Shown here in pieces: positions 4,230 to 55,541 of a stretch of DNA of 64,000 bases. Both the position numbers and the translations under genes were made by a program. Origin of the DNA: a virus (taxonomy: Duplodnaviria > Caudoviricetes); IMG/VR virus record IMGVR_UViG_2911420635_000004, positions 21,348-85,347 of that record, one strand, 5' to 3'. The notes beneath the pieces were generated by a model. The model was not told the DNA's origin, searched no databases, and worked only from the letters and a program-made list of their open reading frames with translations. Position 1 is the stretch's first letter. Each line of letters opens with the position of its first letter.

Positions 4230-4319
4230 AGCGGATAAGAGTGCTGGGAGCGAAAGCTGCCCGGTATTTTTATCCGCTTTTTACATGTTATGCCGTCACG
4301 GATTCGGATTCCGGACGGC
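4230..4319 (+). promoter_or_regulatory. Structured leader: 22-bp hairpin with GAAA loop plus U-tract, then a second hairpin
   Basis: AGCGGATAAGAGTGCTGGGAGC-GAAA-GCT(G)CCCGGTATTTTTATCCGCT pairs fully using five G-U pairs; GCCGTC..GACGGC hairpin at 4292-4319; TGCTATACT extended -10 at 4192-4200. Confidence 0.6.
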
Positions 4320-4355
4320 TGTTTTTGTATCAGGAGAGAAGAGGTGAAACCCAGA

Positions 4356-5006
4356 ATGGGGAGAAAGAAAAGCAACGCACGGATTCTGCCGCGTGGCAGG
4401 AAGATCCATGTGAACAAGTACATCAACAAGCGTGGCTGCACCAAGCATAAAAGCGCCGCCACGCATAACCACAGCACCGAAAAGCAGCAGGAAAGCAGCC
4501 ACACAACTTATGACAGCTTCCCCGCTTACAACTGGCCGACGACCAGAATCCCGAAGCAGTATGAGATCTGGTTTGCAGAGCTTGGTAACCATTATGGCAC
4601 CTGTGTGCAGAGTGGGAACCGTCCGGTGCTGATCCTGACAAACGATATTGCGAACCGTTATTCGCAGACCTTCACAGTTATTCCGCTTACGAGCAAGATG
4701 AAAAAGCTCGACCTGCCAACACATATCGTGCTGACAGAAGCACATTGTGAGATGCTCAGAGCGGAACGACTGGAGGATTCCATTTTGCTGGTCGAGCAGA
4801 TCACAACGATCGACCAGTCGGCACTGTTTGGACGCCTTTGCAGGGTGATCTCTGCTGAGAAAAAGCAGGAGATTGAACAGGCTGTGGCAAGGCAATTTGA
4901 TATGCACAGTACTAAGAAAAACAAACAAAATACAGACGAAAATGCTGCGCGCGGCAGCAATGCCAATTACGGCAGCAACTCTGTACACAGCAGGAAGGAG
5001 GTCTAA
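4356..5006 (+). CDS. PemK/MazF-family endoribonuclease (no adjacent antitoxin)
   Basis: YEIWFAELG..VQSGNRPVLILTND..TVIPLTSK..LPTHIVL..VEQITTID motifs. Confidence 0.88.
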   Translation: MGRKKSNARILPRGRKIHVNKYINKRGCTKHKSAATHNHSTEKQQESSHTTYDSFPAYNWPTTRIPKQYEIWFAELGNHYGTCVQSGNRPVLILTNDIANRYSQTFTVIPLTSKMKKLDLPTHIVLTEAHCEMLRAERLEDSILLVEQITTIDQSALFGRLCRVISAEKKQEIEQAVARQFDMHSTKKNKQNTDENAARGSNANYGSNSVHSRKEV

Positions 5007-7929: not shown

Positions 7930-8997
7930 ATGAGTAAGATTATCACCTGTGAACAGGTCAGCAATGGCCATCCTGATAAGATCTGTGACCAGATCGCAGA
8001 TGCTATTGTGACCGACATTCTTCAGCATGACAGGCACGCCCGTGTGGCGATCGAGTGTCTGCTGAAAAAGAGCCAGCTCTTTATTGCCGGCGAGGTCACC
8101 ACCGACTACCGGCCAAACTACAACCAGATCGTCCATGATGTGTTCAATCGCATCGGCGCCGAAAAGCTGGGGTGGAACCTGACCGAGCTTCTTCGCATCG
8201 GCATTCTGGTGGACAAGCAGTCCCCGGATATTGCAATGGGTGTGGATAAGGGCGGTGCCGGTGACCAGGGTATCATGTACGGTTACGCCACCAACGAGAC
8301 GGCAGAGCAGATGCCGATCCCTTACATGGTCGCCACCAAGTTTCTGCAGCTGCTGAAGAACCATCCGTCCAAGATGTTCCGTGCAGATGCCAAGGCACAG
8401 GTCAGCTACGACTACGACACCGGACGCATCACTACCTTCCTCTGCTCCGTGCAGCACAGCCCGGATGTGGAGGTCAGCGACTTCCGGCACATCATCGAAT
8501 CCATGATGGTACTGGCCGCCTGCGAATACGGTCTGGACGGTGACTTCACGAAGCTCGTCAATCCGACCGGTCGTTTCGTGCTGGGCGGCAGCTACGCCGA
8601 TTGTGGTGTGACTGGCCGGAAGCTGGCGTGCGATACCTACGGTGGCATCGGTCGCATGGGTGGTGGCGCTCTGAGCGGTAAAGATCCCACCAAGGTAGAT
8701 CGCTCCGCAGCTTACATGGCACGGAAGATTGCAAAGGACATCGTGCAGGCGGGCTACGCTGACAAGTGTGAAGTCCAGCTGGCCTACGCCATTGGTGTGG
8801 TACAGCCGGTGGGTGTGTCGGTGGAGTGCTTCGGTACGGAGCACCAGTCCCTTGACTTCATCGAAGCCTACGTTCATGACAGCTACGACCTGACCCCGCA
8901 GGGTATCATCAAGCGGCTGCGACTGCTGGATGTAGATTACAACAAGGTCAGTGCTTACGGTCACTTCGGCAAGGTTGGTCTTCCGTGGGAGGACTGA
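7930..8997 (+). CDS. metK: Methionine adenosyltransferase (SAM synthetase)
   Basis: GHPDKICDQIADA, GAGDQG, GGSYADCGVTGRK, GKDPTKVDRS signatures. Confidence 0.96.
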   Translation: MSKIITCEQVSNGHPDKICDQIADAIVTDILQHDRHARVAIECLLKKSQLFIAGEVTTDYRPNYNQIVHDVFNRIGAEKLGWNLTELLRIGILVDKQSPDIAMGVDKGGAGDQGIMYGYATNETAEQMPIPYMVATKFLQLLKNHPSKMFRADAKAQVSYDYDTGRITTFLCSVQHSPDVEVSDFRHIIESMMVLAACEYGLDGDFTKLVNPTGRFVLGGSYADCGVTGRKLACDTYGGIGRMGGGALSGKDPTKVDRSAAYMARKIAKDIVQAGYADKCEVQLAYAIGVVQPVGVSVECFGTEHQSLDFIEAYVHDSYDLTPQGIIKRLRLLDVDYNKVSAYGHFGKVGLPWED

Positions 8998-15137: not shown

Positions 15138-15229
15138 TACACAACAGGTTTTGCAGTCCCTTGTGTAAATGGTCGAACATGAAGAATATCGGGAAATGGC
15201 CTTGCTATTCATCCGTTTTAGAGTGATAT
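15138..15229 (+). promoter_or_regulatory. Cassette promoter (variant) with a perfect operator palindrome
   Basis: TACACA-N18-TGTGTA at 15138-15167; TTGCTA(15202)-N16-TGATAT. Confidence 0.6.
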
Positions 15230-15292
15230 ATGTGCTACCGAAAAGAACATCGGGATGCACAAAAACAAATGAACGAAAAGGAGCGATGAATT

Positions 15293-16477
15293 ATGTTGAA
15301 ATTTAAACTGAACGTAGCCGAGAGAAAGACCCTCGCAAAACGCATGGAGGAGCTGACCGGCATCCACCCTTACTATACCAAAGCACCTCTGTATTCTTAC
15401 GACATCGGGAGCTACACCATCGACCGGAATGGCAACCTTCTGGTCGAGCCGGAGAATGCAGATGCCGAGCTGCTGACGACCCTGCTGAATGAGGGACTGA
15501 TCCGCGGCGGCGAGAGTATTGAGAGCACGGATGACCAGCCGGAGGACACAGAGCTGACAGCGGATATGGATGAGGAGCCTGTGACCGAAGCGGAAACTGA
15601 GCAGATGCCCGAAGCAGAGCTGGAGGTTCTGGACGAGCAGGAATCCGAAGATGCAGATACCGCAGAAGATGAACCTGCGGAAGCAGGAGCCGAGGATGCA
15701 TTGGAGCCGGACAATACGGCTGAGGATGATACCATAGAGGATGAGCCGGATGCAGAATCGCAGGAGACAGAAGATCAGCCGGAAGAGGTGCCGCTGGACT
15801 TGGAACTTGCATTCCCGGTCAGCCAGCACAACGGTGTGACTCTCCGCAACCTGGTCAACCTTCTTTACAGCCGCGGCAAGCTCATCGGCAAGGCGACTGG
15901 AGGACACTTCCATGTGGAAGAGGGGCTGGTCGAGAAGCTGAAGGACGATAGCTGCACCTTTGCCATCATGAACTTCATCAATGCGGTCAGCGACTATGAG
16001 ACTGAACATGGTGCTGCACTGGAAGGCCTGAAGATCACCACCGAGAAGGTCACCTTTACCGGCTTCCCGACTGCACCGGACCACGAACATCTGACGGCTT
16101 TTGCACAGCTGGCGGTGCTGATGAACCAGCAGGCTATCAGCCAGAAGCGCATCCAGGCAAAGGATGTCAACGATGAGAATGAGAAATACGCACTCCGCAC
16201 ATGGCTCCTGCGGCTGGGGATGAACGGTCCGGATTTCAAAGAGACACGCAAGATCCTCATGGAGAACCTTTCCGGTCATGCGGCTTTCCGCACGGATGAG
16301 GAAGCACAGAAGTTCCTTGCAAGGGAAAAGGCAAAACGGGATGCCCTGAAAGCCGCGAAACTGGCGGCACAGAACGGCGATCCTGCCACAGGGGAAACGG
16401 TCGCACCGGATACGACCCAGCCGACACAGCCCGACTGTGGGGCAGACACGGCGCAGATGCTGGAGGCGGGAGCGTAA
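15293..16477 (+). CDS. Hypothetical protein with a long acidic linker and a C-terminal domain shared with the amidoligase
   Basis: AAGGAG RBS; D/E-rich segment around aa 75-165; NEKYALRTWLLRLG motif. Confidence 0.8.
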   Translation: MLKFKLNVAERKTLAKRMEELTGIHPYYTKAPLYSYDIGSYTIDRNGNLLVEPENADAELLTTLLNEGLIRGGESIESTDDQPEDTELTADMDEEPVTEAETEQMPEAELEVLDEQESEDADTAEDEPAEAGAEDALEPDNTAEDDTIEDEPDAESQETEDQPEEVPLDLELAFPVSQHNGVTLRNLVNLLYSRGKLIGKATGGHFHVEEGLVEKLKDDSCTFAIMNFINAVSDYETEHGAALEGLKITTEKVTFTGFPTAPDHEHLTAFAQLAVLMNQQAISQKRIQAKDVNDENEKYALRTWLLRLGMNGPDFKETRKILMENLSGHAAFRTDEEAQKFLAREKAKRDALKAAKLAAQNGDPATGETVAPDTTQPTQPDCGADTAQMLEAGA

Positions 16478-16492
16478 GCTCCCAATCCCCCC

Positions 16493-16527
16493 AATGGGGG
16501 CCGGAAAATATGCGAGACCCTCTTCCA
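16493..16527 (-). ncRNA. Candidate short antisense RNA 1 (no RBS-led ORF)
   Basis: Follows the minus-strand promoter TTGATA-17-TAATAT; 25/35 identical to 20179-20213. Confidence 0.4.
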
Positions 16528-16535
16528 TTGTACCG

Positions 16536-16663
16536 ATATTAGCTCTGAAAATGTACATTATCAAGCGGATAAACTGCAGAAATGTACACGATCAATCTGC
16601 CTTATATTTGTCGAATATATGTTCTTTTATATCCTTGCTATTATCCGCACCTGACGGTAATAT
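16536..16663. promoter_or_regulatory. Divergent cassette promoter pair with a central operator
   Basis: Minus TTGATA(16564)-17-TAATAT; plus TTGCTA(16635)-17-TAATAT; TACACG-N18-TGTCGA centred exactly between them. Confidence 0.75.
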
Positions 16664-16710
16664 GCACATACCGAAAGGGAAAACAAGGAAAAAACAAAGG
16701 AGAACATACC

Positions 16711-17649
16711 ATGAACGATAAAATAAGAGAGCAGATTGAAACCATGAAGAACCAGACCATCGGGGTTGAGATCGAGATGAACAACATCACCAGAGAAAAA
16801 GCGGCAAGAAAGGTCGCTGAGTACTTCGGAACCAGAGCATGGAACGCGGCCAGCGAGTACGGATATTACAGCTGGGCTTGCAAGGACCAGCAGGGCAGGG
16901 TTTGGAAATTCCAGAGGGATGTGAGCATCTACGGACCGGACGCAGAAAAATGCGAACTGGTCACCCCAATCCTCACCTACGACGACATCGAAACCCTGCA
17001 GGAGATTATCCGACTGCTCCGAAAGGCAGGCGCAAAGAGCGGCCCAAGCCGCGGATGCGGGGTTCACATCCACATTGGCAAAGGCGACCACACCGCAAAG
17101 ACCATCCGCAACCTTGTGAATATCATGGCGGCGCACGAACAGCAGATCGGCAGAGCCATCCGAATCGATGCAGGGCGCACCGGACAATATTGCCAGGTGG
17201 TCAACCATCGCTTCCTCGACCGGCTGAACCGCGAGAAGCCGACCACCATGCGCAAGCTGGAAGACATTTGGTACGAAGGCAACGGTTCCAGCTGGGAAAA
17301 CCGAAATGCCCACTACAATTCAAGCCGGTACCATATGCTGAACCTCCATGCCACCTTCACAAAGGGAACCATTGAATTCCGCCTTTTCCAATTCGCAGAC
17401 CCAGCGGACGGAAAGCGCAATGGACTGCATGCCGGTGAGATGAAAGCCTACATCCAGCTTTGCCTCGCAATGAGCCAGCTTGCCAAGATGGTCAGAACGG
17501 CAAGCCCGAAGCCCCAGCAGACCGACAACGAAAAGTACGCGATGCGGTGCTGGATGCTGAGGCTGGGATTCATCGGGGATGAATTTGCAACGGCAAGGGA
17601 GATCCTTCTGCGGAACATGGAGGGCAACGCATCCTGGCGGAACAAATAA
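16711..17649 (+). CDS. Amidoligase-family (COOH-NH2 ligase) protein
   Basis: IGVEIEM, ELVTPIL, CGVHIHIG, RYHMLNL, TIEFRLF. Confidence 0.88.
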   Translation: MNDKIREQIETMKNQTIGVEIEMNNITREKAARKVAEYFGTRAWNAASEYGYYSWACKDQQGRVWKFQRDVSIYGPDAEKCELVTPILTYDDIETLQEIIRLLRKAGAKSGPSRGCGVHIHIGKGDHTAKTIRNLVNIMAAHEQQIGRAIRIDAGRTGQYCQVVNHRFLDRLNREKPTTMRKLEDIWYEGNGSSWENRNAHYNSSRYHMLNLHATFTKGTIEFRLFQFADPADGKRNGLHAGEMKAYIQLCLAMSQLAKMVRTASPKPQQTDNEKYAMRCWMLRLGFIGDEFATAREILLRNMEGNASWRNK

Positions 17650-17716
17650 GCCGGGATGCACGGGCACCTTTTGGGCGGGCAACCGCCCTTGAGGTGGTAG
17701 AAGGAGGTGCAGGTTT

Positions 17717-17953
17717 ATGAAAAGCACGTTAAAAAATGAAAACACACCGAGTGGCAGAACCTTTAAGGTGACCATCACCGAGACCTACCAGAGAACGGTG
17801 ACCATTTATGAATCCGAGATGAAAGAGCCGACCGTGGAGGAAGCACAGCGTGTGGCAGAGGACTGGTGGCAGGACAGCCAGATCGAGCTTGGGACAGAGG
17901 ATTTCCAGGGCGTGGAATTCACTGGCAGGGAGGACGGTGAGGCAGATGTTTGA
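17717..17953 (+). CDS. Hypothetical protein
   Basis: AAGGAGGTG RBS, 78 aa. Confidence 0.7.
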   Translation: MKSTLKNENTPSGRTFKVTITETYQRTVTIYESEMKEPTVEEAQRVAEDWWQDSQIELGTEDFQGVEFTGREDGEADV

Positions 17954-18467
17954 GTTGATCAGCCGAGTCCCATCCAGATATTATCTTGCCTACGGAAGCA
18001 ACCTCGACATGGAGCGGATGGGAAAGAGATGCCCCTACGCTGTGGTGGTCGGCACGACCGAGATCAAGGGCTACCGGCTTCTGTTCAAAAAGAGCAAGAC
18101 CGGCTGCTATGCCACCATCGAGCAGGATGCCAATGAAAGCGTACCTGCGGTGGTCTGGAAACTCTCGGAATACGATGAACTCCTGCTGGACCGGTACGAG
18201 GGCTGCCCACGATACTACTACAAGAAGCAGTTCCAGCTTCCGGTCTGGAACCTGAACGGGAACCGCATGAAAAAGGCAAAGCCCTGCATCGCTTATGTGA
18301 TGCACGAGGACCGGCGGCTTGGCTGCCCGGATGCCGAGTATTTTGAACTGCTGCAGGGCGGATACAGCGACTGGAAGTTTCCGCTGGATACACTGAAGCG
18401 TGGACTGGCAGCCAGTATCGGAAGGGCGGAAGCCATCCGGTATCTGAAGAAGCGGCAGATGATGTAA
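17946..18467 (+). CDS. Gamma-glutamylcyclotransferase-family protein 1
   Basis: YLAYGSNL..LLDRYEG. Confidence 0.88.
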   Translation: MFELISRVPSRYYLAYGSNLDMERMGKRCPYAVVVGTTEIKGYRLLFKKSKTGCYATIEQDANESVPAVVWKLSEYDELLLDRYEGCPRYYYKKQFQLPVWNLNGNRMKKAKPCIAYVMHEDRRLGCPDAEYFELLQGGYSDWKFPLDTLKRGLAASIGRAEAIRYLKKRQMM

Positions 18468-18470
18468 GAG

Positions 18471-18548
18471 TACACGATCAAAAGCAAATAACATTGTGCA
18501 GTATATGATGCTCATCGGCCTTGATAAATCAGGGCAGAAGAGTGATAT
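18471..18548 (+). promoter_or_regulatory. Cassette promoter (variant) with operator
   Basis: TACACG-N18-TGTGCA; TTGATA(18521)-N16-TGATAT. Confidence 0.6.
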
Positions 18549-18597
18549 ATACCATACCGCCAGACAAGAGCGGAGAAAACCGAAGGGAGAGATTCAA

Positions 18598-19077
18598 ATG
18601 AAGAACAAGAAATATTACATCGCCTACGGCAGCAACCTGTCGGTGGAGCAGATGGCATACCGGTGTCCGGATGCAAAAATTGCAGGACAGGCGGTGCTGG
18701 CAGGCTGGGAGCTTTTGTTCCGAGGCTGCGCTACCATCGCACCGAACCCGAAGAAGAATACGCCGGTTCTGGTGTGGGAGATCTCGGAAAGGGACGAAGG
18801 AAACCTCGACCTCTATGAGGGCTACCCGAACTACTACCGCAAGGAAGACCTGAACATTGAACTGCTCCGGGAAGAGGCAGAGCCGGAGATGGTGACCGCA
18901 ATGGTCTACATCATGGAGAACGACTTCGGACGCCGCTCACCGAGCCGGTATTACTACAAAGTCCTGCATGACGGCTACAAGGCATTCCACTTCCCGATGC
19001 ACATCCTCGAAGGTGCGCTGAAGGAATGCATGGATAAGGATGCCGCCCAGCGGATGATCGAGGAGGTGCAGGCATGA
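18598..19077 (+). CDS. Gamma-glutamylcyclotransferase-family protein 2
   Basis: YIAYGSNL..NLDLYEGYP. Confidence 0.88.
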   Translation: MKNKKYYIAYGSNLSVEQMAYRCPDAKIAGQAVLAGWELLFRGCATIAPNPKKNTPVLVWEISERDEGNLDLYEGYPNYYRKEDLNIELLREEAEPEMVTAMVYIMENDFGRRSPSRYYYKVLHDGYKAFHFPMHILEGALKECMDKDAAQRMIEEVQA

Positions 19078-19541
19078 ATTTCGCAGATCAGAAAATGGTC
19101 AAGAAGTTGAGAAAAGAGTTCCCGGTCGGATGCCGGATCGTCCTCGATGAGATGGATGACAGGCAGGCACCACCCATCGGAACGCAGGGAACCTGCAACG
19201 GGGTCGATGATGCCGGAAACATCTTAGTGAGCTGGGACACCGGAAGCCATCTGAACGTTGCCTACGGCGCGGACAGTTGCCACCGTGTGGCAACGGATGC
19301 CGAGGTCAAGGTGTCGCTTGACCGCCTTGGTAAAACGCGACAGACCGGCCCACGTTGCCCCAGGTGCGGAGCAAAGCCTGACTGTTACGACCATCAGCAG
19401 CAGGCACTCAGCCGAAGGGCGGACATCCAGATCTGCAACCGCTGCGGAACGGAGGAAGCATTAGAGGACATTGCATGGGGCGGACAGCAGAAGATGCATC
19501 TTGCAGACTGGGCAATCGTGAAAGGGGGCTGGGTCGAATGA
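19074..19541 (+). CDS. DUF4314-like protein with a C-terminal Zn motif
   Basis: FPVGCRIVL..MDDRQAPPIGTQG..VDDAG..VSWDTGS; CPRC..ICNRCG. Confidence 0.75.
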   Translation: MNFADQKMVKKLRKEFPVGCRIVLDEMDDRQAPPIGTQGTCNGVDDAGNILVSWDTGSHLNVAYGADSCHRVATDAEVKVSLDRLGKTRQTGPRCPRCGAKPDCYDHQQQALSRRADIQICNRCGTEEALEDIAWGGQQKMHLADWAIVKGGWVE

Positions 19542-19909
19542 AAGTTCTTCTGATCAAACCGATGGAGCATCCGCAGGTGGTTGACATTGAAAACTCCCTG
19601 AAAGAGTTCTACCGCATCCTCGACTGCGACTGCATCACAGCCACCTACCCGTGGAAAGAACGCGCCGCCCTGGTCACCGATGACAACGGTCTGTTCACCG
19701 AGAAGTCATTCAGCAGATACATCCCGGAGCTGGAGCAGCCCATCAAGGGAAACTTCTTCATCTGCGGACTGGGAGAGGAGGATTTCGCAGAACTGCCCCA
19801 GGACCTGATCCGGAAATTCAAGGAACGCTTCTGGGTGCCGGAGGCATTCGTCAGCATGTTCGGGCAGATGGCAGTCATCCAGATGGATGACGGAACGAAG
19901 CCGGAATAA
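19538..19909 (+). CDS. DUF3846-like protein
   Basis: MKVLLIKPMEHP..NSLKEF..PIKGNFFICG. Confidence 0.7.
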   Translation: MKVLLIKPMEHPQVVDIENSLKEFYRILDCDCITATYPWKERAALVTDDNGLFTEKSFSRYIPELEQPIKGNFFICGLGEEDFAELPQDLIRKFKERFWVPEAFVSMFGQMAVIQMDDGTKPE

Positions 19910-19980
19910 GATACCGCAATCAGAAAAATACCCTCTCGGCCAGAAAAGACCGGGAGGGCTTGGTTTAACAGGAGGAGCCT

Positions 19981-20172
19981 ATGGGACACAGAAAGATGCC
20001 TGCTTATGGCGAGAGGGAACACGGCGGCAGATACGTTCTGGATGAATACGAATGGTCGAGAAACCACTGCAAGGCGGTGACCATCCGCAGATGGAAAAGG
20101 GATCTGAAAAAGAAAGCCAGAGCGCATAACCGCAGGGTGATGCATCAGGCAATACAGGGCGAAGCTGATTAG
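19981..20172 (+). CDS. Small basic hypothetical protein
   Basis: AGGAGGAG RBS, 63 aa, K/R-rich. Confidence 0.6.
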   Translation: MGHRKMPAYGEREHGGRYVLDEYEWSRNHCKAVTIRRWKRDLKKKARAHNRRVMHQAIQGEAD

Positions 20173-20178
20173 ACGGAA

Positions 20179-20213
20179 AATGGGGGCCTCAAAAGAATGA
20201 GAACCCCCTTCCA
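20179..20213 (-). ncRNA. Candidate short antisense RNA 2
   Basis: Follows the minus promoter; hairpin GGGGGT..GCCCCC; homologous to 16493-16527. Confidence 0.4.
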
Positions 20214-20222
20214 GTTTACTGT

Positions 20223-20301
20223 ATATTACCTCTGGAAAGCAACGATAGCAAGGAAAACCGCCGCCATAATGTACACAAACATCTGGCAGCGGTTTTGTGT
20301 A
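20223..20301 (-). promoter_or_regulatory. Cassette promoter with operator
   Basis: TTGCTA(20251)-17-TAATAT on the minus strand; perfect TACACA-N18-TGTGTA at 20272-20301. Confidence 0.7.
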
Positions 20302-20372
20302 TCATACCAGACCAAAACGGAGGATACGAGGCAGAGTCCCAGCTTCTGCTGGGGGGAGCCTTTTGGGATTCC

Positions 20373-20624
20373 TTAGAAGAAATCCCTCATGCTCATGCCG
20401 ACCTCGTTCAGTCGTTCTTCCATGCTGTGGTAGTGCCAATCCTCTTCCTCTTCTTCGGCTTCTTCCTCAAGCTCCTCTGGGAAAGGGTCGTGCCGCCATC
20501 CGGCTTTCTGGTATTCTTCTTCCCGAATGTCGTTGCGGTCGTAAATGTCCAGCTCGTATTCTTCTTCAAGCTCTGTGATGCGGTTTTCGATTGCGGTTTC
20601 AACTTCTGTAATGGTCTTTTTCAT
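20373..20624 (-). CDS. Highly acidic small protein
   Basis: ACGGAGG RBS; EELEEEAEEEEEDW; own promoter. Confidence 0.75.
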   Translation of the reverse strand: MKKTITEVETAIENRITELEEEYELDIYDRNDIREEEYQKAGWRHDPFPEELEEEAEEEEEDWHYHSMEERLNEVGMSMRDFF

Positions 20625-20674
20625 GGTTTTTGTCCTCCGTTTTTGGTTTGGTTTTCTTTGCTTTCGTTGTGTGT

Positions 20675-20802
20675 ATAATGCCGCAGAAACACATATATAG
20701 CAAGTCAATCAGGGGTCATATATGTACCAAACATGAGGGACGAAGATCGTTGATAATATGACGTTTTATGGCCTTGCTATCACAGGGCGGTGACGGTAAT
20801 AT
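20675..20802. promoter_or_regulatory. Divergent cassette promoter pair with a central operator
   Basis: Minus TTGCTA(20703)-17-CATTAT; plus TTGCTA(20774)-17-TAATAT; same 70-bp gap between -35 boxes as at 16536-16663. Confidence 0.72.
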
Positions 20803-20833
20803 ACAGCTACAAAAAGCAAAGGAGGACAACAAA

Positions 20834-21010
20834 ATGGCTGATTGGAGAACATGGAAAAAGGGAAGAAAGACAACATGGCACTGGAACGAATTTGATGGAA
20901 GCGGAAGCCGGGAAGGAATCATCACCGAGGTTCATGAAGACCACGCGATCATGGAAGCAGACGGCATGCACCTCTGGATCGACGATGACACGGCAGAGAT
21001 GTTCAGCTAA
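20834..21010 (+). CDS. Small hypothetical protein
   Basis: AAAGGAGG RBS after a cassette promoter. Confidence 0.75.
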   Translation: MADWRTWKKGRKTTWHWNEFDGSGSREGIITEVHEDHAIMEADGMHLWIDDDTAEMFS

Positions 21011-21051
21011 GAAAAACGGGGAGGGAAACTTCCCCGGATAAACACATAAAT

Positions 21052-21120
21052 CCACCAGTTCAGGGCGCAGATGATTGTGTACTTTAGCCGCTTGATAGTA
21101 TCCGGCAGTGACGGTAATAT
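21052..21120 (+). promoter_or_regulatory. Cassette promoter
   Basis: TGTGTA..TAGCCGC-TTGATA(21092)-N12-GACGG-TAATAT. Confidence 0.75.
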
Positions 21121-21150
21121 ACAGCTACCAAAACGAAAGGGGCAAAGAAC

Positions 21151-21357
21151 ATGGAACGCTACACTTACGAGGTCACCTTTACACGGCTGGATGGACAGCC
21201 GGATGAAATCCAGCAGCACACTAGCGAGGAGCTGGCAAGAGAATGCTTCCGGCTTTTTGATGAGCCGGACAGCGCAGAGATGTACAGCAAAATCGAACTT
21301 AGCCGCCATGACTGGGAGACAGGCATGGATGAAATTCTGGAAACGATGACATTCTGA
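21151..21357 (+). CDS. Small acidic hypothetical protein
   Basis: AAAGGGG RBS after a cassette promoter. Confidence 0.7.
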   Translation: MERYTYEVTFTRLDGQPDEIQQHTSEELARECFRLFDEPDSAEMYSKIELSRHDWETGMDEILETMTF

Positions 21358-21372
21358 GAGGAGAACAAAAAC

Positions 21373-21633
21373 ATGACCTACACAAAAATCAACCTTTACC
21401 TTGCAAACGGAATTCCGGAGGCACTCAGCAACCTCTGGTACGGAAGCGACAGCTCGGTGGTCGAGATCAGGGATGCCGTTGAGGATGCGAAGAACGGCAA
21501 GGACCTTCTGAACCGTATCCAAAAGATGAAGCTCCTTCGGAAATTCACCCTCGACAGGGAGAACGACAAGCGCATCCGCTTCAAGGGAACGGACTGCTGG
21601 GGCAACGTAAGCTACCTTAAAATCATCCGCTAA
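21373..21633 (+). CDS. Small hypothetical protein
   Basis: GAGAGGAG RBS; hairpin follows. Confidence 0.7.
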   Translation: MTYTKINLYLANGIPEALSNLWYGSDSSVVEIRDAVEDAKNGKDLLNRIQKMKLLRKFTLDRENDKRIRFKGTDCWGNVSYLKIIR

Positions 21634-21722
21634 AGGCAAGGCCGACAGGCGCAAGGGGCTGGAAATGACCAGCCTTTTGCTCGTGTCTGTCTTCCGAAAG
21701 CTGGCATGAAAAGCACATGAAT

Positions 21723-21791
21723 ATGACAATTACAGGGCCGAATGATTGTGTAGTTTAGCCGCTTGATAGTGCTCCGAGGTGACGGTAATAT
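21723..21791 (+). promoter_or_regulatory. Cassette promoter
   Basis: ATGACA-N18-TGTGTA; TTGATA(21763)-N12-GACGG-TAATAT. Confidence 0.75.
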
Positions 21792-21835
21792 ACAGTCACC
21801 GAAAGGGGAAAACAACAAAAACGGAGGATACGACA

Positions 21836-22285
21836 ATGACGAAGAATGAAGACCGCATCAATAAACTTTTCAAGGAACTGGTACCGGATACGGGCAAGGC
21901 AGACAGCCTCGCAGGGGAGCTGGTAAGGGCAATGAGCCGCATCGGATACCGCTTTTACAACGACGGCGACCAGCTGGGCATCGGCTACGGCAAGGAAACC
22001 TGCAACCCTGCAGGGCGGTTCCTTGGAGCCAAGGGCAACGACAAAATCGCAAAGCTGACTGCAGATGCCTGGGCAGTCTACAGTGAGGAAGCCTACGAAA
22101 AGGTTCTGGACATCCTTTGCGGAGCGGTTGCCGACTATGTTGAGCAGAACCCAGACCTTAGAAACCAGCCGACCGAAGATATGTGGGATTTCAAGGATGA
22201 GGAAGAAGACCAGGATGACAGCTGGGATGAAGAGGAAGATGACTGGGGCGAAGAGGAAGATTACGAGGACGAAGAAGACTACTAA
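21836..22285 (+). CDS. Hypothetical protein with a very acidic C-terminal tail
   Basis: ACGGAGG RBS; GELVRAMSRIGYRFYNDGD; D/E tail. Confidence 0.78.
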   Translation: MTKNEDRINKLFKELVPDTGKADSLAGELVRAMSRIGYRFYNDGDQLGIGYGKETCNPAGRFLGAKGNDKIAKLTADAWAVYSEEAYEKVLDILCGAVADYVEQNPDLRNQPTEDMWDFKDEEEDQDDSWDEEEDDWGEEEDYEDEEDY

Positions 22286-22342
22286 GCCAGAGAAACACAT
22301 GGGGCTTGCCGGTAACGGTAGCCCTTTTCTTCTGCCGTAATA

Positions 22343-22411
22343 CGCACAGTTCCGGGGGAACATATTTGTGTAGTATAGCCGCTTGATAGTGTGTGACATA
22401 GACGGTAATAT
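22343..22411 (+). promoter_or_regulatory. Cassette promoter
   Basis: CGCACA-N18-TGTGTA; TTGATA(22383)-N12-GACGG-TAATAT. Confidence 0.75.
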
Positions 22412-22455
22412 GCACATACCGAAACGGAAAACCAAGAAAAACGGAGGAAAGCACC

Positions 22456-22647
22456 ATGAAGAAGAACATCACCAAGGAAGAGGAAAAAACCCTGCTGGAG
22501 ATCGCCAAGCGCCTGATGGCAGCGGTGGACAGCCGGGGCGACCTCGAAGCCCGCGACAATGACAGCGAGGACTTCATTGAGGTTCCGGTCTGGGGCATCC
22601 AGAAAGCAATGGAGGAAGCCTACCTGCTGGGACGGATGACCAGATAA
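22456..22647 (+). CDS. DUF6900-like small protein
   Basis: DLEARDNDSEDFIEVPVWGIQKAMEEAY. Confidence 0.7.
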   Translation: MKKNITKEEEKTLLEIAKRLMAAVDSRGDLEARDNDSEDFIEVPVWGIQKAMEEAYLLGRMTR

Positions 22648-22775
22648 ACCGGCAGCCCCCGACACAGCCCCACACAGGGGCTTGTGCCACGGGTGGCAAA
22701 ACGATCCGAAGGAACTGACAACGCCCCACACAGGGGCAGATGTGGCGGCGTGGATGCGCCGGGAAGGAGAAGCAC

Positions 22776-22982
22776 ATGGAAGAACGGATGATGGATACCA
22801 TCGTGGAAATCTACAACCACATGGATGACAGCGATAAGGATGCCTTCACGTTGGAAGATGCCGAGGATATGGTGGAAGACCAGATCAGGATGGATAAGGA
22901 AGCCGGACGGGAATCGCTGGCATATGACCCGCAGTTCTTCTACGATACCATTGTGGAACTCATGGAGCAGGACGAAGAGTGA
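22776..22982 (+). CDS. Small acidic hypothetical protein
   Basis: AAGGAG RBS; D/E-rich. Confidence 0.65.
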   Translation: MEERMMDTIVEIYNHMDDSDKDAFTLEDAEDMVEDQIRMDKEAGRESLAYDPQFFYDTIVELMEQDEE

Positions 22983-23015
22983 TGTACATTCTGCTTGGTA
23001 TTCCGGGCAGAAGAT

Positions 23016-23060
23016 CGTGTACTTTAGCCGCTTGCTATCCTTTGCACCTGACGGTAATAT
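23016..23060 (+). promoter_or_regulatory. Cassette promoter
   Basis: CGTGTA..TAGCCGC-TTGCTA(23032)-N12-GACGG-TAATAT; 33 bp identical to the 16635 copy. Confidence 0.75.
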
Positions 23061-23116
23061 GCACATACCGAAAGGGGAAAGCCCCAAGGAATAACGAAAA
23101 CACGGAGGATTTTACC

Positions 23117-23401
23117 ATGAAAATGCATTTGATTGACTTTCCAGAGGACAACATCAGCATCGAGAGCTTCTACGACCGACTCAGACCTTGCTACGACAGC
23201 ATCATGCAGTTCGGTGACAGGGTTCTGGTTGCCCAGATGAACTGGAACGGCATGCTGGAGGGAGCGGTATACGGCTTTGTGGAAGACCCGGAGGAAGGCT
23301 GGTCACCGATTGAGTGCCGATTGGAGCTTCTGAAGATTTCCGATGAGACCTACACGGATGCCGGTCACGCAATCGAGTGGTGCATCAAGAACGCACACTG
23401 A
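23117..23401 (+). CDS. Small acidic hypothetical protein
   Basis: ACGGAGG RBS. Confidence 0.72.
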   Translation: MKMHLIDFPEDNISIESFYDRLRPCYDSIMQFGDRVLVAQMNWNGMLEGAVYGFVEDPEEGWSPIECRLELLKISDETYTDAGHAIEWCIKNAH

Positions 23402-23407
23402 AAAAGG

Positions 23408-23432
23408 GCAGAGCTCCTTCGGGGGCTTTTGC
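23408..23432 (+). terminator. Hairpin terminator between cassettes
   Basis: GCAGAGCTCC-TTCG-GGGGCTTTTGC. Confidence 0.6.
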
Positions 23433-23473
23433 TCGTAGTGGCGGATTTCTCCGGCGTGTAAATACACATAAAT

Positions 23474-23542
23474 CCGACAAAAAGAGGTGTGTATGATCGT
23501 GCAGCATAGCCGCTTGCTATGTCCGGGCAGTGACGGTAATAT
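23474..23542 (+). promoter_or_regulatory. Cassette promoter
   Basis: CCGACA-N18-CGTGCA; TTGCTA(23514)-N12-GACGG-TAATAT. Confidence 0.75.
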
Positions 23543-23600
23543 ACAGTCACAACGAAGGGAAAAGCCCTACGGAAAACAAAACACACGGAGGATACAGACC

Positions 23601-23978
23601 ATGACGAACAAAGCAAAAATCTACCTCAAGAACATTCAGGAAGCCGACACCGAGAAGAAGCTGATCGGCATCGAGATCGCCTTCAAGCAGGACATGACCC
23701 TCAGCTGCAACGACCTCGGAAGCCTTTGCAGGGCGGCAGAAGACAAGCGGTACAGCCTGCGGAACAACGAGGAAACGTTGAAGCTGAAGCAGATCCTTTT
23801 CTTCCGGACGAAAGCGGAGATGGATGCCTACCACGACATGAGCCGCAAGCCGGAAGACTGGACAGAAGCGGAGATCGAGCAGCAGAGAAGCCGCTTCTGC
23901 AGCGTCTGGCAGGTCATCGAGGAAGCGGAGCTGGTCGATGAGTACGAGGCTTGGAAGGAAGCCAACCCCAACGCATAA
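23601..23978 (+). CDS. Hypothetical protein
   Basis: ACGGAGG RBS; hairpin follows. Confidence 0.72.
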   Translation: MTNKAKIYLKNIQEADTEKKLIGIEIAFKQDMTLSCNDLGSLCRAAEDKRYSLRNNEETLKLKQILFFRTKAEMDAYHDMSRKPEDWTEAEIEQQRSRFCSVWQVIEEAELVDEYEAWKEANPNA

Positions 23979-24169
23979 CAGCACCCAAAAGGTACACGCC
24001 CCGAAAAGGGGCTGTGCCTCGTATCCGATGTGTTTTATATAAAGTTGTCAAAATGGGAAACTATTTACTATTCATACGAAAAAGTTTCTCGTTTGGGAAA
24101 ATGATATTTTAAGGACTTCTTCGGAGGTCCTTTTTCTTTACCCATTTTTACAGAAGGGAGGGGAAGCCA

Positions 24170-26622: not shown

Positions 26623-27594
26623 TTAAGAATTGCTGATGAAATTTTGAAGCTGGTTTAAGTGTGCGCGCTGCTGAGTTCCCAAAATCTGATTGCAAATGTT
26701 GGGCGAAATCTGAGTTCTTAATAAGTCTGTGCAATCAATAAAGGAACTCACAAATTGCTTACAGGCCGTTTTGGTTTCTCCCATCTTTCGTAATATGTAA
26801 GTAATCAGGATTATGTAGGCGTCAATGTATTTGAAGTCAAGACCTGTAATGCCTACTTCTGTTTCAAGAAGCGAAATAAGGCGTTTGTTTATTGTACTTG
26901 TCTGAAAACGAGTATCAAAGATGGTGTTGTTATGTGCAACAGCGTTTCGTAAATCTTTGACAGCGTAAATCATGTATTCGGTGATTTTTCCATCTGAATC
27001 CAGATTGCTTGGCAAGTGAAGTATGCTCGAAGTCTTCAATTTGACATTTGCATTTGAGCAGGCGAAAAAAGTACCAAACTCTCCCAACGTCAGTGATTCA
27101 AAAACAGCCCAAATAGGAATTGGGCGGTCAGTATCAAAGAAATGGTTGACAGTTTGCTTCTGATTTGAGTAATCACGCAAAAGTGCATTATTGATTTTTC
27201 CCTTGAGGGTCATCCGCTTTGCATATTGCTTGTGGTACTGTTGGCTTCCAGGAGCGTAGGACTGATAAGCAGTAATGGATTTATTGAAAACGACATCGAG
27301 ATTTTCTGATTTGCTATCTTGAAGCACGGCTTCAATCACATAACTTTTCAGTGCGTTTTCAATGAACATTACTTTTGGATAAATCAAAGTCTTCAACTGC
27401 ATATCAAATTTATTTAACGCTATGACTTCATCAAGCGATGAAAAAGGAATACGTTGGTTTGGCGTGCGGATGAAGCGGTATCCTTTGTATCCATGATAGT
27501 AGCCAATGTTTCGTAGTGATTGAGCCTGATTGCTTTTAACAGAAATCTGGTGATGATTTCTCAAATATTTCATAAGCTGATTGATTGACAGCAT
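26623..27594 (-). CDS. Abi_2 (AbiD/AbiF-like) HEPN abortive-infection protein
   Basis: LRNIGYY, FDMQLK..IENALK, PIWAVFESLTLG, HEPN RNAVAH; AT-rich; own TTCCAT-17-TATAAT promoter at 27626-27654. Confidence 0.87.
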   Translation of the reverse strand: MLSINQLMKYLRNHHQISVKSNQAQSLRNIGYYHGYKGYRFIRTPNQRIPFSSLDEVIALNKFDMQLKTLIYPKVMFIENALKSYVIEAVLQDSKSENLDVVFNKSITAYQSYAPGSQQYHKQYAKRMTLKGKINNALLRDYSNQKQTVNHFFDTDRPIPIWAVFESLTLGEFGTFFACSNANVKLKTSSILHLPSNLDSDGKITEYMIYAVKDLRNAVAHNNTIFDTRFQTSTINKRLISLLETEVGITGLDFKYIDAYIILITYILRKMGETKTACKQFVSSFIDCTDLLRTQISPNICNQILGTQQRAHLNQLQNFISNS

Positions 27595-52735: not shown

Positions 52736-52908
52736 AAAAAATAAGAGCCCTGCCGTAGCAAGGCTCTCATTAAGCGTTTTTGTTCGATTCAAAGAATCTA
52801 TTCGGCTTGTGGTTGTCGCATAACCCACGGGCAGGCTCCACAATCGGCTGAAACCGAACCAGTCCACTGCTTCAACGCCACGATAGCTGGTCAATGCCGC
52901 TATCCTCT
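52736..52908 (-). ncRNA. Candidate ~170-nt structured RNA upstream of PBECR4, ending in a terminator
   Basis: TTGTGT-16-TGT-extended TATAAT at 52915-52942; nested stems; GAGAGCCTTGC-TACG-GCAGGGCTCTT terminator before the RBS. Confidence 0.62.
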
Positions 52909-53180
52909 AAGTTCATTATAACACAAAATAACCAGAACACAAGTACTCTGGAATAATTTGTGGCGTGTGAACTATCACGCTCAGTATTAGTATATGCGGA
53001 ATCGGAAAAATCGCAACTGGAAAAAGAAACAAAATAAAAATAAAAATCGTGCAGATAAGACAATAATCTCCCAGATTATTCTCCGTCTTTCTGCGCCGAA
53101 ATTACTTGATAATATCACGAAACAGAGGGAATATGTGACTGCCCAAAGAGAAGAAAACGGGCAGGAAAGGAGCGAAAACT

Positions 53181-55541
53181 ATGAGTACTGGTACGGATTT
53201 CCTTGCAAATCTGCAGAAAAAGACTGTGAAGAATACAGTACAGCAGAAACAGCAGAAGAGAGTAAATGCATCTGCTGTGGATGTCTCGGTTTTACTGGAA
53301 GCCGCTCTTGGGAAAAAGAAACCTGTGGAAGCTGTGGCAGATGTTCGTCAAAGTACGGATGCTGCCACAGCTTCTTTTTTACCACTGGCTGATACGCACC
53401 AGGGCAGGTCTACTCAACAAAAACCCAAAAACGCATCAGATAAAAAACAGACACCCCAAAAATCAAAAGACATCGTGGACGCCGGTATCACAGCTCTTAT
53501 CCAGAAAGCTCTGGATGCCAAAAAGGTCATGGCAGAGCCGGACATTGTAGAACGGCTGCAGAGCAGTATGGAGAGTGAGTTTACGAAGCTCTTCACACCG
53601 GAAGAACCGCAGGATAACAAGTTCGTTTCGACGGCGACCTTCCGGGCTACCAAAAAGAAAGCCGGAACCCTTAATGTGGCAGCTTACATCCGCGTTTCTA
53701 CGGACATGAGCGACCAGGAGAACTCCTATGAAACGCAGGAAAAATACTTTAACCAGCTGATTGAAAATAATCCGGCATGGAATGCAGTCGGTGTGTACTC
53801 CGATTACGGCATCTCCGGCACTTCCAAGGAAAAGAGAACCGGATTCCGCCGACTGATGCGCCATTGTAAGGACGGGAAGATCGACCGCATTGTGTGCAAG
53901 TCCATATCACGATTTGCCCGAAACACGGCTGACTTTATGAGTGCACTGGATGTCCTGCATGACTGCGGGGTAACGATTCTGTTCGAGAAAGAAAATCTGG
54001 ATACGGCAGACCCGACCAGCGACTTCATCCTTACGACACTGGCAGCCATTGCACAGGAAGAAAGCCGCAGCATTTCCAGCAACATCCGGCTGGGGCAGAA
54101 GATGCGCTTTCCGAAGGGGGATGTTCCAAACAAGATCATGTACGGATACCGCTACAATGGGAAGATGGTTACCTCCGAGAGCGGATATGAGTATAAAGAT
54201 ATTGAGATCGTTGAGGAAGAAGCCAGGGTCGTCCGGCGCATTTTCCATGAAGTCGTGGAAGGGAAAGCCTATACGGAGATTGCAAGGGGACTGAACATGG
54301 ACAAGATTCCGGCTCCTGTCACCGACGCAGTGAGAGTAAGAAAGAAAAAATCCAAGAAAGGGCAGTTAAACAGTGATCTGCTGGATGGATGGACAGGCGG
54401 AAATATCACGCGGATCGTCCGTGCCGAGCGGTACATGGGTGCAGTCCTTATCCAGAAGAAGTTCACATCGGATTACCTGACACATGAAGTCCGGGACAAC
54501 AAAGGCGAAGTCCCTCAGTATTTTGTCCGGAACCATCATCCGGCAATCGTTGACGAGGACCTGTTTGAAAAGGCACAGGAAGTCGTAAAAGTAAACAGCG
54601 ATTTATATAACAGGACAAGATCCGGCAAGAAGCCGAGAGCGTTTTCCCAAAGACTAATCTGCGGGGAGTGCGGCCGCTTTTTCCATGTGACAAACGGAAA
54701 TGGGAACTATCCCATCTGGCGGTGCCCGACGAGCAGCCGGACGACAGGAAACCGTATCTGCCATGCAGAAAAAGTATACGAGGAACAGGTTGTCCGAGCC
54801 TTCCGTAAAGCAGTTCTGGAGCGGTTCCGGCTGACGCTTAAGCCCATCCATGACAACGTGGCTGTGGCAGACATCATGAGCGGCCGGTTCAAAGAGCAGT
54901 ATGACAACTTCACCCCGGAAGCAGATTCTTTTGTAAGCCAGATGCTTGCACGGCTGGAGAGCATTCAGAAGCTGGATTTTATGGAACGCGACCGTGCTTT
55001 TTATAAAAAGCAGATAGCGGCCGCACACACCAGTGTGGAAAGCACCAGTAAGAAGATCCGGCTCCTGAAAAGTCAGGTGGATGTGATGCAGACCCGTCTG
55101 GAACTTCTCGGTGACGAGATGATCGACCCTGCTTCTATTGAGGAGAAGAAAAAGCTCATTGAGAAACTGGAGTGTGATATTCAGAAGGACACGGACACTG
55201 AGCAGAAACTGACCGAACAGCTCGACTATATGGAAGACTACTGGGAAGAACTGGAGGGCGATTATGAACGAAGGGAAAAGGCAATCGGGTGGATGAAGAG
55301 CCTCCCGGCGGGGCGGGATGGTACGGTGGCCTTTCTGAATGAAGTGACCGAAGAACACTGCAAGGCATTCCTCCTCTCCATCACGATCCATTCACCGCTG
55401 AAGTTTACGGTCCACTGGTTCGATGACACCAAGACCGAGGTAGAGATGGATTCCAATATTGAAGATTACCGCAATACCGCAAGCTATTATGACGGGCATA
55501 CGATGCGCGACGGCAGCCAGCGGAAGAGGCATGTAAGATAA
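53181..55541 (+). CDS. Large serine recombinase 1
   Basis: AAYIRVST, YSDYGISGT, KSISRFARN, HHPAIV, Zn ribbon CGECG. Confidence 0.93.
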   Translation: MSTGTDFLANLQKKTVKNTVQQKQQKRVNASAVDVSVLLEAALGKKKPVEAVADVRQSTDAATASFLPLADTHQGRSTQQKPKNASDKKQTPQKSKDIVDAGITALIQKALDAKKVMAEPDIVERLQSSMESEFTKLFTPEEPQDNKFVSTATFRATKKKAGTLNVAAYIRVSTDMSDQENSYETQEKYFNQLIENNPAWNAVGVYSDYGISGTSKEKRTGFRRLMRHCKDGKIDRIVCKSISRFARNTADFMSALDVLHDCGVTILFEKENLDTADPTSDFILTTLAAIAQEESRSISSNIRLGQKMRFPKGDVPNKIMYGYRYNGKMVTSESGYEYKDIEIVEEEARVVRRIFHEVVEGKAYTEIARGLNMDKIPAPVTDAVRVRKKKSKKGQLNSDLLDGWTGGNITRIVRAERYMGAVLIQKKFTSDYLTHEVRDNKGEVPQYFVRNHHPAIVDEDLFEKAQEVVKVNSDLYNRTRSGKKPRAFSQRLICGECGRFFHVTNGNGNYPIWRCPTSSRTTGNRICHAEKVYEEQVVRAFRKAVLERFRLTLKPIHDNVAVADIMSGRFKEQYDNFTPEADSFVSQMLARLESIQKLDFMERDRAFYKKQIAAAHTSVESTSKKIRLLKSQVDVMQTRLELLGDEMIDPASIEEKKKLIEKLECDIQKDTDTEQKLTEQLDYMEDYWEELEGDYERREKAIGWMKSLPAGRDGTVAFLNEVTEEHCKAFLLSITIHSPLKFTVHWFDDTKTEVEMDSNIEDYRNTASYYDGHTMRDGSQRKRHVR

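Follow-up and report, generated by a model that had tools for sequence, protein, structure and literature searches.

A conserved promoter-like unit with natural recombinants heads the small accessory genes of a Candidatus Heliusvirales-like temperate phage

Why does a temperate phage carry one and the same promoter-like sequence in front of a whole series of mostly unrelated small genes? This question arises from a stretch of 64,000 nucleotides, hereafter the window (positions 21,348 to 85,347 of the 85-kb IMG/VR provirus record IMGVR_UViG_2911420635_000004), to which coordinates refer unless another contig is named. The window belongs to a Candidatus (Ca.) Heliusvirales-like temperate siphovirus of Lachnospiraceae, whose large terminase subunit TerL and capsid protein are 65% and 57% identical, respectively, to those of a GenBank phage classed as Ca. 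Heliusvirales. Members of this phage order have been reported in more than 90% of the people of one cohort (PMC9226167). The repeats form an array in an accessory region between three DNA methylase genes and the small terminase gene terS. An earlier note, made from the sequence of the window, had described them as a shufflable gene-capture region resembling either the promoter-early stem-loop (PeSL) elements of T4-type phages or an integron. We find that the repeated unit is conserved across hundreds of related phages and occurs in natural recombinant forms. We consider it probable that a conserved regulatory cassette partitions the accessory module, and that homologous recombination between its copies deletes, inserts or swaps promoter-plus-gene modules.

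The pattern TTGMTA-N12-GACGGTAATAT has exactly seven matches in the window, all on the plus strand and without mismatch, whereas 0.00 were expected from 100 shuffles. Their -35 elements start at 16635, 20774, 21092, 21763, 22383, 23032 and 23514, which are the seven copies that the earlier note had listed. Reading the copies in register also bore out its remarks that TAGCCGC stands ahead of five of them and that those at 16635 and 23032 have 33 identical bases. With TTGMTA-N17-TAATAT and at most one mismatch, ten matches were obtained against 0.17 expected, adding 16564 and 20251 on the minus strand and a copy at 53106 that had not been described before and lies directly upstream of a large serine recombinase gene. 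All three minus-strand copies proposed earlier are in place; those at 16564 and 20251 match TTGMTA-N17-TAATAT exactly, but the one at 20703 has CATTAT as its -10 element. The two variants of the form TTGMTA-N16-TGATAT, at 15202 and 18521, are exact as well (0.02 expected). Judging from the bases at and directly before the -10 element, the units fall into two classes, i.e., GACGG followed by TAATAT (class 1) and AGAG(C/G/T) followed by (T/G)AATAT (class 2), the latter being represented in the window by 15202, 18521, 16564 (minus), 20251 (minus) and 53106. The 12 copies of the array are all located between the methylases and terS (15.1-23.6 kb), one extra copy precedes the recombinase, and none is found in the replication or structural modules. 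The copies have 22-33 identical bases in common and are 70-85% identical over about 100 bp.

The regulatory cassette is about 100-130 bp long and splits the region into about ten predicted transcription units. Its parts follow each other in a fixed order: the GC hairpin of the previous cassette, an inverted repeat, the promoter, a leader with a strong Shine-Dalgarno sequence (SD), and one to four open reading frames (ORFs), rather than the one or two genes proposed at first. The leader is rich in A and purines (ACCGAAAGGGAAAAC). That copies are followed by an A-rich leader, a strong ribosome-binding site (RBS) and an ORF was confirmed, except that no ORF follows those at 16564 and 20251. The predicted hairpins also held up: in eight of nine cases, the segment behind the stop codon of a cassette forms a GC-rich hairpin and folds better than its shuffled versions (z -2.2 to -5.7), and several of these hairpins are followed by a U run, which makes them candidate terminators. 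A generic terminator scan of the region returned 10 terminator-like sites against 10.4 expected.

To describe the unit beyond the window, we built a consensus from 249 distinct units extracted from IMG/VR loci. The promoter resembles those of sigma-A but departs from their consensus, taking the form TKGMTA, a 17-bp spacer with conserved last bases, and KAATAT. Conservation extends to columns outside the pattern by which the units were selected, namely AT.AT.GTG at -21 to -13 and tTA.cc.C at -8 to -1 relative to the -35 element, and ACC.aAA.GGAAAA after the -10 element. Across all loci, an RBS-led start codon follows 454 of 536 units, in 401 of these 454 at a distance of 30-59 nt after the -10 element. 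Upstream of the promoter lies an inverted repeat, TACACA...TGTGTA, whose right half is present within one mismatch in 172 of the 249 units. It is placed 16±1 bases before the -35 element in 139 cases and 26±1 bases before it in 49, positions that are one helical turn apart. The left half was found in 112 units versus 23 for a reversed control, and the spacers of the inverted repeat cluster at 18-20 and 29-31. Consistent with this, the 6-mers ATGTAC, TACACA and TGTACA occur upstream in 62-77 units versus 0-4 units in a coding control. Such phased half-sites ahead of a suboptimal promoter look like an upstream activator site.

Two further readings of the unit were considered and dropped. Class-2 units may recall a sigma-H promoter (GGATAT ... 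GAAT), but the spacing is off by one, and most -35 variants (TGGCTA, TTGMTA) do not fit. The CCGCT within TAGCCGCTTG resembles the reverse complement of the Bacillus Chi 5-mer, which is probably due to chance and concerns one unit subfamily only.

The immunity repressor was rejected as the binder of the upstream repeat, as the immunity switch carries three GAAC-N4-GTTC boxes and no TGTGTA/TACACA repeat. This switch (G000:C1:10212-10300, L244) lies between the ImmA/HTH pair and the early operon, and its three boxes overlap canonical TTGACA promoters. The boxes have the shape of the Firmicutes LexA box, and because of this resemblance the host SOS repressor or a mimic of it may control induction directly.

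How widely is the unit distributed? A scan of IMG/VR found it in at least 115 contigs with at least 249 distinct units; among the matches listed, five contigs have seven copies and seven have six. The first genes behind the unit belong to about 59 families (all loci, among the matches listed). Altogether, hundreds of independent contigs carry units, as do prophages in isolate genomes of Blautia and others. Multi-copy arrays were found in genomes named Blautia, Wujia, Acetatifactor, Hominilimicola and Lawsonibacter, while lone matches in Bacteroidota, Paenibacillus and other taxa are about as frequent as estimated by chance for 596 Gb. Four GenBank Heliusvirales phages, three of them with Lachnospiraceae, Dorea and Evtepia annotated as hosts and one without a host annotation, carry one to three class-2 units each. 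These units have the full architecture, comprising an ACACA...TTGTGTAC repeat, a -35 element of the form TGGATA, TGGCTA or TTGMTA, TTAGAGC followed by GAATAT, then GTRMCTACCGAAAGGGAAAAC and AACGGAGGA, and an ATG about 48 nt after the -10 element. Judging from this distribution, the unit is apparently older than the phage group of the window, and class 1 seems to be a derived subfamily whose expansion took place in the subgroup of the window.

Units or unit-like promoters also occur outside main arrays. A class-1 unit with one mismatch lies at G000:C1:5819-5847 (L244), upstream of a DUF6809 gene and left of the immunity module. In the window, a class-2-like unit (53096-53180, plus strand; TTGATA-N17-GAATAT) stands directly upstream of the large serine recombinase gene at 53181-55541. 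Moreover, in 18 other loci, including L018, L035, L043, L059, L064, L068, L069, L086, L097, L098 and L103, the exact class-1 core sits at the 3' end of a small ORF (ending ...DGNM/I stop), directly upstream of serine recombinase genes of ~430 amino acids (aa); a GTGTAG motif lies some 27 bp ahead of the -35 element. Since unit-like promoters precede serine recombinases both in the window and in these 18 loci, the promoter type is one that integrase genes of other Clostridia elements have as well.

With the unit defined, we compared the cassettes of related phages. The strings of cassettes vary between phage subgroups, and the same gene families recur in different neighbourhoods. In locus L051, the cassette of ORF 21836 stands ahead of that of ORF 20834, and the blocks of homology to the window begin at 21736 and 20773, i.e., at units. 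Locus L070 contains a hybrid unit whose left part is that of U1 (-35 at 20774) and whose right part is that of U2 (-35 at 21092), the switch lying inside the common stretch GTGACGGTAATATACAGCTAC; the cassette of ORF 20834 is missing. The same junction was observed in four contigs from at least three metagenomes, next to 32 contigs with the parental U1 form, and is therefore a circulating allele rather than an assembly error. A second hybrid, in L121, joins the left part of U4 (-35 at 22383) to the right part of U5 (-35 at 23032) with the switch in the common GACGGTAATATGCACATACCGAAA. This locus lacks ORFs 22456 and 22776, and beginning with its fourth codon the Nmad4 ORF gives way to another gene. 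The same replacement gene stands behind a U4-type leader in L022, where, in addition, a U1/U2-type unit is joined directly to ORF 21373. Finally, L046 contains a block of 18% divergence that runs from the leader of U3 (21847) to the core of U4 (22400) in a background of about 95% identity, an allele swap that extends from one unit to the next.

The crossovers fall into the spacer or -10 element in L070, between the -10 element and the leader in L121, and into the SD in an indel that concerns ORF 21151. This range, from the spacer and -10 element to the leader and SD, matches that reported for PeSL mini-circles, whose crossovers map between the -10 element and the ATG or SD (PMC2839356). As the crossover points vary from event to event, they fit homology-driven rather than site-specific exchange. 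The PeSL-like reading is supported in three respects: one unit heads many unrelated gene families, the content and order of cassettes vary, and hybrids cross over inside the repeat.

Under the explanation that we favour, the regulatory cassette would split an accessory ('hyperplastic') module into about ten independent transcription units. The units would act as promoters read by the host RNA polymerase, probably helped by a putative upstream-binding factor, and would give each small gene strong and insulated expression. Homologous recombination from unit to unit, made plausible by the identical bases and the similarity that the copies have in common, would then exchange promoter-plus-gene modules while regulation stays intact, as has been described for the PeSLs of T4-type phages.

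Several observations weigh against this explanation. Among close relatives, only 10 of 59 boundaries of divergent blocks lie inside units, which make up 11.7% of the array sequence, and a general role of units as recombination hot spots was therefore rejected. For several indels, neither end falls into a unit, and the presence or absence of ORF 21151 involves a join of the GGGG SD-like block of the unit to the SD of ORF 21373 and not of unit to unit. Close relatives are largely collinear, and each presence/absence event may have been either a deletion or an insertion. Regarding the promoters, the -35 element, 17-bp spacer and -10 element are present in all copies, but each hexamer agrees with the consensus at four of six positions, and the hexamers of distant relatives are weaker still (TGGATA/GAATAT). 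A generic sigma-70 scan showed no enrichment in the region (8 promoter-like sites versus 6.5 expected); the scan was uninformative, and TTGCTA with TAATAT scores below its 9/12 threshold. The IMG/VR sample was chosen with the class-1 pattern, and promoter activity, the time of expression (lysogenic, early or middle) and termination at the hairpins are predictions. A reciprocal junction with the left part of U2 and the right part of U1 was not found in the assembled contigs scanned, which says little about mini-circles. The phrase 'recombination-driven library' used in the earlier note is an overstatement in view of the collinear relatives, the block boundaries and the indels that end outside units.

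The same observations lend themselves to an alternative in which the units are a shared regulatory signal only, that is, co-regulated promoters with an operator and no special role in recombination. Gene turnover would then result from illegitimate recombination, selection for intact gene boundaries and general homologous exchange between related phages. Most boundaries of allelic blocks do lie inside genes or other intergenic DNA, the indels that end nowhere in a unit fit this view, and the indel of ORF 21151 uses microhomology at the SD. On the other hand, at least three independent presence/absence events cross over inside a stretch common to two units, one of them recurring in four contigs, and the homology blocks of the permuted cassettes in L051 start exactly at a unit. 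We think this alternative unlikely.

Which polymerase form reads the units is a separate matter. Spacing (17 bp) and hexamers speak for the host primary sigma factor, and the conserved bases beside the -10 element, like the upstream repeat, speak for a specific factor in addition. Instead, the units could be phage-specific middle promoters in a temporal cascade, read via a sigma-like factor of the phage (G000:C1:13140-13961) rather than host sigma-A. The promoters of the immunity region are canonical TTGACA promoters from which the units deviate consistently, the bases directly upstream of the -10 element are conserved, and the sigma-like gene occurs in 9 of 11 near-complete unit-bearing IMG/VR records. 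Its product, encoded in the early operon, passes TIGR02937 and has a clear sigma-70 region 4. However, region 4 is the only sigma region detectable. The N-terminal part is unrecognisable and partly beta-rich, and the AlphaFold model, with a mean predicted local distance difference test score (pLDDT) of 51, contains no confident sigma-2 domain and a beta-rich middle part. Moreover, no homologue at E<=0.01 was found in the four complete GenBank Heliusvirales genomes that carry class-2 units, the gene is likewise missing from two near-complete records with a single unit each, and the co-occurrence of gene and unit is confounded by shared ancestry. A phage-encoded sigma factor as the reader of the units hence seems distinctly improbable to us. 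At E<=1e-5 the protein has 372 homologues; among the 120 listed, most have a length of 245-300 aa.

An integron-like mechanism, in which a dedicated recombinase such as one of the two large serine recombinases captures genes at a defined site in the unit, was suggested earlier and has very little probability left. The unit-like promoter ahead of the recombinase gene of the window and the exact class-1 cores ahead of such genes in the 18 other loci would be in its favour. Yet neither a tyrosine integrase nor an attC-like structured site was found, the crossover positions differ between L070, L121 and the indel of ORF 21151, and the recombinases sit at the prophage end, where integrases are expected. 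Lastly, although the related sequences are metagenomic assemblies, a chance pattern or assembly artefact has practically no chance of being correct, given seven matches against none expected, the independent contigs and isolate prophages, and a hybrid junction that recurs in several samples.

Going through the array from left to right on the plus strand, the first class-2 unit (15138-15292) contains TACACA (15138)-N18-TGTGTA (15162), the -35 element TTGCTA at 15202, TGATAT, a leader and an SD. It heads a gene for a 394-aa acidic protein (15293-16477) with an isoelectric point (pI) of 4.3. Most of this protein can be aligned with the PHROG 'amidoligase enzyme' family (phrog_2443), and it is homologous in its C-terminal ~67 aa to the C-terminus of the amidoligase encoded further downstream. 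Class-1 unit U0 (16583-16710, -35 at 16635) leads a three-gene cassette (16711-18467) of Amidoligase_2 (16711-17649), a DpnD/PcfM-like protein (17717-17953) and a GGACT/AIG2 protein (17946-18467). The next class-2 unit (18470-18597, -35 TTGATA at 18521, TGATAT) is followed by a four-gene cassette (18598-20172) encoding GGACT (18598), DUF4314 (19074), DUF3846 (19538) and a 63-aa basic protein (19981). A cassette on the minus strand (20373-20703) consists of TTGCTA-N17-CATTAT with its -35 element at 20703, a leader and an 83-aa acidic ORF (20373-20624).

Downstream of it, six class-1 cassettes follow on the plus strand. The stretch 20740-21010 comprises U1 (-35 at 20774) and a 58-aa ORF (20834-21010) and is the cassette absent where the U1/U2 hybrid occurs. 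A GC hairpin, U2 (-35 at 21092) and ORFs 21151-21357 and 21373-21633 make up 21011-21633, ORF 21151 being absent in L122, L107 and L093. The segment 21634-22285 holds a predicted terminator hairpin, U3 (-35 at 21763) and a 149-aa acidic ORF (21836-22285). Then come a hairpin, U4 (-35 at 22383), a DUF6900 ORF (22456-22647), two hairpins and ORF 22776-22982 (together 22286-22982), and U5 (-35 at 23032) with the Nmad4 ORF 23117-23401 (22983-23401). The last cassette before terS (23402-23978) contains a hairpin, U6 with its inverted repeat from 23463 and its -35 element at 23514, and ORF 23601-23978.

Two promoters on the minus strand head no gene. The first (16493-16564) has TTGATA-N17-TAATAT with the -35 element at 16564; the second (20179-20251) has TTGCTA-N17-TAATAT. 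Both point at the 3' ends of plus-strand operons and are each followed by a homologous hairpin element of ~40 nt, that of the second being 71% identical to 16493-16533. They could yield short antisense or regulatory RNAs or be bidirectional insulators. Rfam and tRNA scans of the array found nothing.

The cassette genes thus include the families Amidoligase_2, DpnD/PcfM, GGACT (twice), DUF4314, DUF3846, DUF6900 and Nmad4, the remainder having no family. The claim that they lack homology to each other applies to most of them, but not to two pairs of proteins: the GGACT proteins are homologous to each other, and ORF 15293 has a C-terminal domain in common with the amidoligase (16178-17640; 40% identity over 67 aa, E 2e-13). 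Searches of PHROGs and NCBIfam left the small ORFs without a functional assignment, and an Atlas look-up of ORF 21836 returned unnamed viral clusters only. Twelve of the 17 cassette proteins have a pI below 5.3. A role of the cargo in host takeover or anti-defence may be suggested by the family names and this acidity.

The genes around the array are arranged as follows. Left of the window lie the ImmA/HTH immunity pair, the sigma-70 region-4 protein, a PD-(D/E)XK nuclease and a family A polymerase. The early part of the window encodes an SNF2 helicase, a D5-type primase, an S-adenosylmethionine (SAM) synthetase (7930-8997) and the three DNA methylases, and a PemK/MazF-like toxin gene (4290-5006) also lies upstream of the latter. 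After the array follow terS, terL, an antisense Abi_2 gene (26623-27594, minus strand), portal, ClpP protease, HK97-type capsid, tail genes and lysin, and two large serine recombinases close the layout at the prophage end. Between lysin and recombinases, a full-length drum RNA (RF02958) occupies 52769-52880 on the minus strand (91.9 bits versus a gathering score of 43). The segment before terS (24042-24169) exists in two very different alleles among phages that are otherwise ~95% identical. At its end, directly before the RBS of terS, stands a strong hairpin with a T run (24111-24132) that resembles a terminator, which suggests that the late genes need antitermination or a separate activator.

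Among known systems, the closest is that of the PeSLs of T4-type myoviruses (Arbiol et al. 2010, PMC2839356; Comeau et al. 2014, PMC4122927). In both cases stem-loops are combined with sigma-70-like promoters (predicted ones in the window), this composite recurs throughout a hyperplastic region with many small ORFans, and cassettes are transcriptionally insulated, as predicted here from the sequence. A GC-rich hairpin able to end upstream transcription lies adjacent (also predicted, in eight of nine segments), and crossovers from copy to copy account for indels that distinguish close relatives, as in the hybrids of L070, L121 and L022. Stem-loops of the form GGGG...CCCC, reported for the PeSLs (PMC2839356), are a further likeness. 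The PeSL phages are, however, virulent myoviruses of Proteobacteria, whereas the window derives from a temperate siphovirus of Gram-positive Clostridia with an HK97-type capsid, outside the T4-like lineage. Because phage order and host phylum differ, no sequence relationship exists, and the units add a helically phased upstream inverted repeat and a conserved leader, we conclude that the array is a functional analogue of the PeSL regulatory cassettes and not a member of the PeSL family.

Other systems are less similar. The morons of lambdoid and other temperate phages also combine a promoter, one or few genes and a terminator (predicted in our case) between phage modules, but classical morons are single unrelated insertions with their own promoters, whereas about a dozen cassettes here have one homologous regulatory unit. 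In contrast to integrons, whose attC sites bound promoterless cassettes, every cassette of the window carries a promoter (predicted); what is repeated is the promoter unit rather than an attC site, and crossover points vary. A Pfam scan of the large ORFs revealed no IntI and only the serine recombinases, about 30 kb from the array. The array is not an integron.

In the Firmicutes phage SPO1, the host-takeover genes have numerous strong early promoters as well as strong RBSs. We know of no role of these promoters in cassette shuffling. The SPO1 module (about 26 early genes; PMC6873191) likewise gathers many small genes in one block, but belongs to a virulent phage and lies in the terminal redundancy. 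Stoperators of Cluster A mycobacteriophages (PMC9283540, PMC6550527) are also short regulatory sites repeated between genes in fixed orientation to transcription. They bind the immunity repressor, however, whereas the GAAC-N4-GTTC switch operators found here are unlike the TGTGTA repeat, and the repeated unit contains the promoter. The halovirus HF2 has families of repeated intergenic sequences that act as promoters (PMC8707807), albeit archaeal promoters in an archaeal virus.

In the literature searched, we found no description of this unit for these phages, as the earlier note had surmised, and the Heliusvirales papers among it never mention promoters. A more far-reaching interpretation, which we advance only tentatively and hold to be rather doubtful as a whole, is that the units constitute an order-wide expression and gene-capture platform of Ca. 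Heliusvirales, which rank among the most prevalent phages of the human gut. Activator-dependent promoter-operator-leader cassettes would then be controlled by a dedicated regulator on TACACA...TGTGTA, bound on one face of the helix, and any small gene could move from phage to phage by unit-to-unit recombination, possibly as excised circles. The cargo would be largely acidic anti-defence or host-takeover proteins, and the platform would represent a second, independent invention of PeSL-type shuffling.

Until now, T4-like virulent phages were the only ones documented to shuffle genes in this way, using repeated promoter cassettes as portable homology. If our explanation is true, it would account for the turnover of small accessory genes in these prophages. 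The unit would define a conserved promoter-operator whose regulator and timing are directly testable in Blautia-type lysogens, and it would provide a simple sequence handle to harvest hundreds of candidate early or anti-defence genes from gut metagenomes.

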